Below are positions 53,595 to 53,963 of a stretch of DNA of 64,000 nt, in pieces (the stretch's first letter is position 1; each line of letters begins with the position of its first letter). The position numbers were made by a program, and so were the translations under genes. The notes beneath the pieces were generated by a model that saw only the letters and a list, made by a program, of their open reading frames with translations, had not been told where the DNA came from and did no database searches. Source of the stretch: a virus (taxonomy: Duplodnaviria > Caudoviricetes); the IMG/VR virus record IMGVR_UViG_3300028410_000746; one strand, written 5' to 3'.

Positions 53595-53963
53595 CTATGG
53601 TGGAGGTCGAGAGGAGAGCGCCAAGGGCAAGCCACGGGTCACATGCAAGCACACGTAGTCATCCATCCCGTCGGGATCACCCAGGGGGCGGATCGCCACG
53701 GCGGTCACCGCGTCGCCGTAATACGGCTCACGGAAGACAGTGTGTGAGATGTGATGGGCTTGGAGCTTGGCGACGAGACTCACGAGGTGGTCTTCATCGC
53801 GGGCCGCCAGCATGACGATTCGGTTGGACACTGCGCGCCACGTAGCTACCCCATCCGAGGAGTCTAACGTGTGCTCAATGGCCGCATGAAGCGACTGAGC
53901 GGCCTGTTGCCCGGCAGATAGGTCTGCTCGGGTGACGACATAGAATTTAGCGTTCTACGACAT
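53595..53963 (-). CDS. Pth2-fold (PTRHD1-like) protein with an in-frame amber at codon 3 (readthrough gene or pseudogene)
   Basis: GGAG RBS, ATG TCG TAG, then NAKFYVVTRADLSAGQQAAQSLHAA...RIVMLAARDEDHL...FREPYYGDAVTAVAIRP; no alternative start upstream of the conserved N-terminal motif. Confidence 0.7.

Follow-up and report, generated by a model that had tools for sequence, protein, structure and literature searches.

The window analysed here is a 64-kb stretch (64,000 nucleotides) of the genome of a giant phage from lake water; the sequencing runs that contain it are lake-water runs, none of them RNA. All genes of the window lie on the minus strand, the GC content is about 0.61, and TGA is the commonest stop codon. 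That the window is phage DNA is shown by its five tRNA genes and by PHROG matches to a tail protein, a minor head protein and a DNA helicase. The DNA of the locus had no match among 50,697 phage records, indicating that the phage itself is new. On the record, a contig of 365,960 bp, the gene of interest is present only as a truncated call of 78 amino acids. This Pth2-like gene (minus strand, 53595-53963) is flanked by two conserved neighbors. Directly downstream is an ORF of 199 amino acids (52949-53545, minus strand), which has 42% identity to its counterpart in the related contig L001 and no Pfam match; directly upstream is an ORF of 63 amino acids (54061-54252, minus strand), whose C-terminus aligns with ORFs upstream of the homologs in contigs L002 and L036. 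Four phage tRNA genes, Ala-UGC, Val-UAC, Trp-CCA (a weak match) and Gly-UCC, were identified just upstream by ARAGORN and Rfam (54322-56237, minus strand). The tRNA-Trp(CCA) gene (55877-55950) scored 34.9 bits against the Rfam tRNA model, compared to 60-67 bits for its neighbors, and may be atypical or decayed.

On the minus strand, a Shine-Dalgarno sequence, GGAG (53976-53973), is followed after a 9-nt spacer by ATG (53963-53961), TCG (53960-53958) and the amber codon TAG (53957-53955), whose next base is A. The codons AAC GCT AAA TTC TAT GTC GTC ACC stand behind this early TAG and begin a Pth2-fold coding region of 119 codons (53598-53954) that is open throughout and in frame with the leader. 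The gene ends at its own TAG (53597-53595, next base C), with a backup TGA two codons further on (53588-53586). The first canonical start behind the early TAG is a GTG 42 codons into the frame, which would yield the 78-amino acid ORF and result in loss of strand 1 and helix 1. As no start codon separates the TAG from the conserved K-F-Y-V-V-T-R-x-D-L strand, the leader ATG is the sole source of that motif. The sequence ATGTCGTAG occurs exactly once in the window. The original prediction had described the in-frame ATG-TCG-TAG leader, its ribosome-binding site and the lack of any other start that could supply the N-terminal motif, and all of these descriptions proved correct.

Two further upstream elements had been proposed, a promoter and a 5'-UTR hairpin, and each was upheld only in part. 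A -35-like TTGACA is located at 54047-54042 and a weak -10 candidate, CATTCT, at 54024-54019, with a 17-nt spacer between them. The clade retains the -35 element (CTTGAC does not vary between the window, L001 and L002 when these are aligned, and L036 has it too), but the -10 sequence is poor and a consensus promoter scanner made no call at this site. The hairpin, CGAGGCGC / GTGCCTCG with a 5-nt loop (54004-53984, minus strand), does exist in the centroid fold, but its function is doubtful: its folding-energy z-score against shuffled sequences is -0.28 in the window (-1.57 in L001, -0.16 in L002), and its sequence is not conserved, the same place being occupied by a different GC-rich hairpin in L001 and by an imperfect hairpin only in L002. 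Another hairpin, which includes the TAG itself (GUAGAA...UUCUAY), was predicted in all three clade members tested; it was set aside as evidence, having only wobble-compatible changes in three sequences.

The bases at 53955-53957, which the original prediction had marked for a check, are secure. An independently assembled Logan contig, from a lake-water run that is probably the source sample, shows no difference from the window over 53300-54348. Four other clade contigs, all from other samples, also read ATG-TCG-TAG and have differing 5' UTRs. Contigs L001 and L002, found by protein search and showing 71-72% identity to the window protein, read ATG TCG TAG AAC before K-F-Y-V-V-T-R-A-D-L. A profile search added two more members, L036, which reads M-S-TAG-K-F-Y-V-L-T-R, and L037/L038/L039, which read ATG TCG TAG ATG ACG; the second ATG of L037 is too far from the ribosome-binding site. 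The nine bases of the leader (53955-53963) are identical in all of these contigs. L001, L002, L036 and L037 likewise have a GGAG or AGGAG, 7-9 nt upstream of the leader ATG, and this conserved spacing indicates that the ribosome-binding site serves the leader ATG rather than a later codon. When the DNA of the window, L001 and L002 was aligned, fourteen bases around the start and stop were invariant and the 5' UTR was largely different; downstream, changes fall mostly at third codon positions and are synonymous from the first codon past the TAG. The retention of the TAG in five clade members, and at codon 2-5 in distant phages (see below), follows the expectation set out beforehand, and this pattern of conservation supports a function for the early TAG. 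A metagenome scan with peptide patterns found no relatives, nor did the family profile match any of 401 genomes of an actinobacterial class or two additional single genomes at E <= 1e-6.

The protein is Pth2-like by profile match and predicted structure. Its 119 amino acids match Pfam PF01981 (PTH2) over profile positions 2-100 of 115 with 35.5 bits (cut-off 23, E = 1.2e-8). An AlphaFold model based on a 94-sequence alignment has a pLDDT of 91.4 and a pTM of 0.86, and the top 13 Foldseek matches to it are all Pth2-family structures (TM by query 0.65-0.76, probability 1.0), among them 2zv3, 1q7s, 3erj, 1wn2 and 1xty with TM 0.71-0.76. The family profile matches 2zv3 with E = 7e-13. Like archaeal and eukaryotic Pth2 (2zv3, 1wn2, 3erj, 1xty and human Bit1, 1q7s), the family has the motifs R-x-D-L and A-Q-x-x-H-A in addition to the predicted common fold. 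It differs from canonical Pth2 elsewhere: aligned with 2zv3 by profile, it has an invariant Glu76 in place of the Asp of D-A-G and a variable position, Gln16 in the window, in place of the Lys of G-K, and Q17, W39 and E-P-D are near-invariant residues specific to the family. In addition, the clade of the window has Tyr instead of the Asp78 found in more than 90% of the family. We take Lys18 and Asp86 to be the catalytic residues of Sulfolobus solfataricus Pth2. With the G-K Lys not conserved and the clade having Tyr in place of Asp, peptidyl-tRNA hydrolase activity is not assured; the protein may hydrolyze an ester bond on a tRNA substrate.

The amber suppressor tRNA gene with anticodon CUA, reported previously at 51742-51814, is located on the same strand 1.8 kb downstream of the Pth2-like gene. 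It was detected both by ARAGORN and by Rfam (65.7 bits with full coverage of the tRNA model) and folds as a cloverleaf with a 7-nt anticodon loop, a short variable arm and discriminator A; CCA is not encoded. The short variable arm argues against a Ser, Leu or bacterial Tyr identity for this putative suppressor. About 90 nt upstream is a promoter-like sequence, TTGACC-18-CATAGT (TG-extended; 51933-51904, minus strand), a consensus match only. Sigma-70-like -35 boxes precede both the Pth2-like gene and the tRNA-CUA gene, unlike the motif of about 32 nt found at nine intergenic sites of the window (see below), which hints at a separate, possibly early, transcription of these two genes.

We searched phage records for homologs by tblastn and found them in 239 records, of which the DNA was read for one representative per lineage. 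Distant homologs, with 31-49% identity where measured and GC contents from 0.24 to 0.65, carry an in-frame TAG at codon 2-5. This distant set comprises LR756504 (M-T-TAG-I), LR745206 (M-N-N-TAG-I), LR756501 (M-S-TAG-I), LR756502 (M-K-N-TAG-I), LR756500 (M-K-TAG-I), Tenacibaculum phage pT24 (M-K-TAG-I), Erwinia phage Kaldavass (M-A-H-TAG-N), Pectobacterium phage CBB (M-A-Q-TAG-N), the IMG/VR contig L003 (M-K-D-K-TAG-I), mycobacteriophages Bxz1 (M-TAG-V) and ScoobyDoobyDoo (V-TAG-V), and contigs L040 and L092. Carriers of the early TAG include several phages of 0.46-0.74 Mb, and L003 is AT-rich. Every one of nine independent lineages has TAG as the in-frame stop just ahead of the conserved N-terminus (P about 5e-7, from trinucleotide frequencies), and the layout of the window, an early stop with the ribosome-binding site on the upstream start, recurs in 16 other loci. 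Of 18 cases, the early TAG is followed by A in 16 and by G in two; in E. coli a 3' purine is reported to favor amber suppression (Bossi 1983; Miller and Albertini 1983). The codon before the stop varies across the family, and may be TCG, AAG, ACC, AAT, CAT, CAA or others. The annotated CDSs of CBB (CBB_406), Kaldavass and pT24 begin downstream of the start of homology, which indicates that their annotators met the same early-stop problem.

A profile search of 1.84 billion representative sequences identified 2897 family members at E <= 0.001. Among the best 149 of the 2897, about 26 begin M-x-Q-I or similar, at least about 19 are N-terminally truncated calls, and 75 (about half) have ordinary-looking N-termini. 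For one member, P0005, the collection states that it is translated only with TAG read as Q. Five of the ordinary-looking members were checked in the DNA: P0041 and P0007 hide a start-codon-TAG leader directly upstream, P0010 and P0021 do not, and one is ambiguous. The early TAG is common in the family, not universal.

The relatives show several additional features of this kind. The LR756501 homolog has a second internal TAG. In distant phages, some genes next to the Pth2-like gene likewise have a TAG one or two codons behind their initial M: L003:9201-9980 reads MK-TAG-VNKNEK, L017:25865-26450 reads MNT-TAG-ITFKQ, and an ORF of L011 just after 8330 reads MK-TAG-IKITIRGP. Such genes may be further clients of suppressor tRNAs. 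In L003 an upstream motif, AATTAAATTT, is common to the Pth2-like gene and the neighboring M-x-TAG gene. A crude scan for other genes that open with a start, at most four sense codons and a stop gave mostly noise, and the coding strand of the window yielded no second candidate. CBB also has a second PTH2-family gene, CBB_392 (L015:1833-2261), which has a conventional start and is located 6 kb upstream of the amber-led one.

A tRNA-CUA gene was found within 0.2-4 kb of the early-TAG gene in 11 loci: the window, L003, Bxz1, ScoobyDoobyDoo, LR756501 (two copies), LR756500, pT24, Kaldavass, CBB, L037/L038 and L092. The expected co-occurrence of an early TAG with a CUA tRNA is seen at these loci but not in three phages of about 640 kb, LR756504, LR745206 and LR756502, which have the early TAG and no tRNA-CUA within 25 kb on either side; a limited pattern search of the three whole records found only Arg and Leu tRNAs and one tRNA with an 8-nt loop. 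Lak-B7 has the leader M-N-I-TAA-I and, 600 nt upstream, a tRNA-UUA instead, so that anticodon and stop type match there; a later in-frame ATG weakens this case. Two homologs lack the early stop and keep a suppressor tRNA, L093 with a tRNA-CUA 6 nt downstream of the gene and L090 with a tRNA-UUA 450 nt upstream, which indicates that the enzyme and the suppressor tRNA travel together and points to a functional pairing of the two. In XacN1 the homolog is part of a fusion and has no early TAG; the two tRNA-CUA genes of that phage are in its terminal repeats. The 13 suppressor tRNAs compared are only 46-66% alike; they are therefore not one lineage, and inheritance of a single block does not by itself explain the pairing of gene and tRNA.

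Several unusual tRNA arrangements were noted among these genomes. The tRNA of LR756504 with an 8-nt anticodon loop is located near 281 kb (L031:146-221); ARAGORN reports its anticodon as 'tcta', complementary to UAGA. The Pth2-like leader of that phage reads TAG-A, and an ordinary tRNA-CUA was not found nearby. In L037 (6026-6496) and L092 (6001-6489) the Pth2-like ORF has no stop before the adjoining tRNA-CUA gene and runs into the tRNA, such that if the tRNA were cut out of the transcript, an mRNA without a stop codon would be left. Directly behind the tRNA-CUA genes of these two contigs are several tRNA-like genes (L037:6504-7583 and L092:6579-7163) that have unusual anticodon loops and are marked '???' by ARAGORN, with anticodons of 2 or 4 bases.

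We consider it likely, from the comparative evidence, that translation starts at the leader ATG and that the full-length protein depends on the phage suppressor tRNA, as had been proposed. Initiation at the leader followed by amber suppression is the only model that would fit every member of the family. A frameshift or hop was rejected because the leader and the body already share one frame. Reinitiation would make the leader a start-stop element or minigene, with termination at the TAG and a new start directly behind it, for which no suppressor is needed. Some members do offer such a start: the cluster C phages Bxz1 and ScoobyDoobyDoo have a GTG directly behind the TAG at the ideal Shine-Dalgarno spacing of 7 nt, so that their annotated start may be right and the ATG/GTG-TAG vestigial, L037 and L092 have an ATG there, and many homologs have the near-cognate ATA or ATT. 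However, the codon in this position cannot initiate in the window, L001 and L002 (AAC), in L036 (AAG) or in CBB and Kaldavass (AAT/AAC, Asn). Reinitiation also leaves two things unexplained, the exclusive use of TAG even in AT-rich phages, in which TAA dominates, and the linkage to tRNA-CUA genes; we regard it as unlikely. An assembly error or a pseudogene, the other outcome foreseen in the original prediction, draws its only support from the truncation of the gene to 78 amino acids by gene callers. It is scarcely credible, given an independent contig identical at every base, the same TAG in four other clade contigs and in distant phages, and a frame that is otherwise intact, most changes in the alignment with L001 and L002 being at third codon positions.

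A further alternative is that TAG is reassigned in part of the genome, as in code 15, and that the Pth2-like gene is simply one of many recoded genes. The window does encode a suppressor tRNA and represents only 64 kb of a 366-kb contig, and among the relatives there are both the second internal TAG of the LR756501 homolog and the additional M-x-TAG genes (L003:9207, L017:25874). Against this, an in-frame TAG occurs in none of the 51 other crude genes of the window, which include ORFs of 1157-1474 amino acids, and 4 of the 52 crude gene calls end in TAG (44 end in TGA and 4 in TAA). Among these 52, the Pth2-like gene alone has coding signal on either side of an in-frame TAG. Reading TAG as sense lengthens no other coding-strand ORF of the window, and the 20 kb around the L003 gene behave alike. 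Moreover, the annotations of CBB, Kaldavass, pT24 and the cluster C phages use the standard code, and across the family the early TAG is confined to codon 2-5 rather than scattered. Of the traits of a TAG-reassigned phage, the 64 kb available from the 366-kb contig show the encoded suppressor tRNA and not the many in-frame TAGs, and such a code is very unlikely here.

If the leader is read by suppression, as we favor, ribosomes would initiate at the leader ATG with its Shine-Dalgarno sequence and, in the absence of the suppressor, would terminate after two codons. Where the phage tRNA-CUA is expressed and charged, as it presumably is, it would decode the amber codon and a protein of 121 residues would be made, so that output of the protein would be tied to suppressor activity. 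The residue inserted at the TAG is probably not critical, as the codon falls in a tail just before strand 1. Our preferred explanation for such a gate is that it couples the dose of the enzyme to the suppressor, with the enzyme either clearing by-products of suppression or tuning the suppressor; the TAG could also sense release-factor status, as the original prediction had suggested. A broader interpretation, which we offer tentatively and with some doubt, would make tRNA-CUA and the Pth2-like gene the two parts of a self-contained module that spread across large phages of Actinomycetota, Proteobacteria and Bacteroidota. In this scheme the suppressor would license synthesis of the enzyme, the enzyme would act on the suppressor or its products, and the early stop would sense the strength of suppression. 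The substrates might then be the charged suppressor tRNA or the peptidyl-tRNAs that read-through leaves behind, and the amount of stop-codon read-through in the infected cell would be set by the module. A point against gating by suppression is that the TAG-ended genes of the window would also be read through, one of them by 79 codons.

The arrangement has partial parallels in known systems. In E. coli the prfB gene for release factor 2 has an early in-frame UGA, passed by a +1 frameshift at codon 26, and thereby senses its own product. The Pth2-like gene resembles prfB in that it is a translation-factor-like gene with an early in-frame stop whose decoding would report the state of stop-codon reading; it differs in staying in the same frame past the stop, in the proposed escape by a suppressor tRNA, and in that feedback of the enzyme on the tRNA is only proposed. 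The lambda bar minigenes (AUG AUA UAA), free-standing ORFs whose final sense codon determines which tRNA is sequestered, cause peptidyl-tRNA drop-off, and the original prediction had invoked them. The two-codon ORF followed by a stop and the thematic link to Pth are shared, but the comparison does not hold further, because the leader is not free-standing and continues in frame into a conserved protein, and the codon before the stop is not conserved.

Suppressor tRNAs of phages are known to recode stop codons, with TAG read as Gln ('code 15') in Lak megaphages and crAss-like phages (bioRxiv 10.1101/2021.08.26.457843; PMC10879173); peptidyl-tRNA hydrolase is mentioned in neither paper. As in those phages, a phage tRNA-CUA is expected to read an in-frame TAG on which expression depends. 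Code-15 phages have many TAG-containing genes, mostly late, whereas the window has one gene with a single TAG at codon 3, and the rest of it follows the standard code, with TAG still ending genes. Phage XacN1, likewise large, has a tRNA cluster with tRNA-CUA among its members, and its authors could find no target for the suppressor tRNAs (PMC5852040); in the window, CBB, Kaldavass and pT24, by contrast, the Pth2-like gene is a concrete candidate target. Our search of the literature, which included the recoding preprint and a theta-ribozyme paper, found no description of an amber-gated Pth2-like gene with a suppressor tRNA. The earlier claim of novelty stands in that respect, but the arrangement is a family-wide trait rather than a one-off.

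Many large phages with a standard code carry amber suppressor tRNAs without a known target, and a gene with an early TAG offers a testable one. The arrangement would represent a minimal natural 'lock and key' gate on translation, and the kinship of the locked protein with tRNA-recycling enzymes suggests that phages may monitor or manage the cost of read-through. If the module interpretation is true, the suppressor tRNAs regarded as 'orphan' in standard-code phages would gain their first natural client and a feedback logic. Automated gene calling cuts genes with an early TAG short or overlooks them, as shown by the 78-amino acid call here and by CDSs that start too late in CBB (CBB_406) and Kaldavass. 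The same layout is present in cultivable phages, namely CBB, Kaldavass and pT24.

Three classes of repeats were also observed in the window. CRISPR-like arrays are located at 22971-23361, 41979-42065, 42346-42495, 43983-44011 and 55280-55305; in the largest group, seven repeats of about 29 nt recur every 61 nt, and the rest consist of three groups of smaller size and one lone copy. Read on the coding strand, the repeat shows the CCCCG...CGGGGAT core seen in type I-E repeats. An actinobacterial host is suggested by an exact degenerate match that occurs in arrays of Streptomyces, Nocardiopsis, Stackebrandtia, Corynebacterium and others. A motif of about 32 nt (minus strand CTTGTGGTATATAG...) occurs at nine intergenic sites (23868-23899, 24509-24540, 34503-34534, 35108-35139, 35837-35868, 36414-36445, 37481-37512, 45994-46025 and 54261-54292), with a conserved 40-nt stretch behind several copies. 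One copy precedes the 63-amino acid ORF just upstream of the Pth2-like gene. This motif is probably a phage-specific promoter or regulatory signal. Finally, tandem repeats of 21 nt (7 codons) extend from 29591 to 30900 within two ORFs, 29338-30426 (362 amino acids) and 30444-33917 (1157 amino acids).
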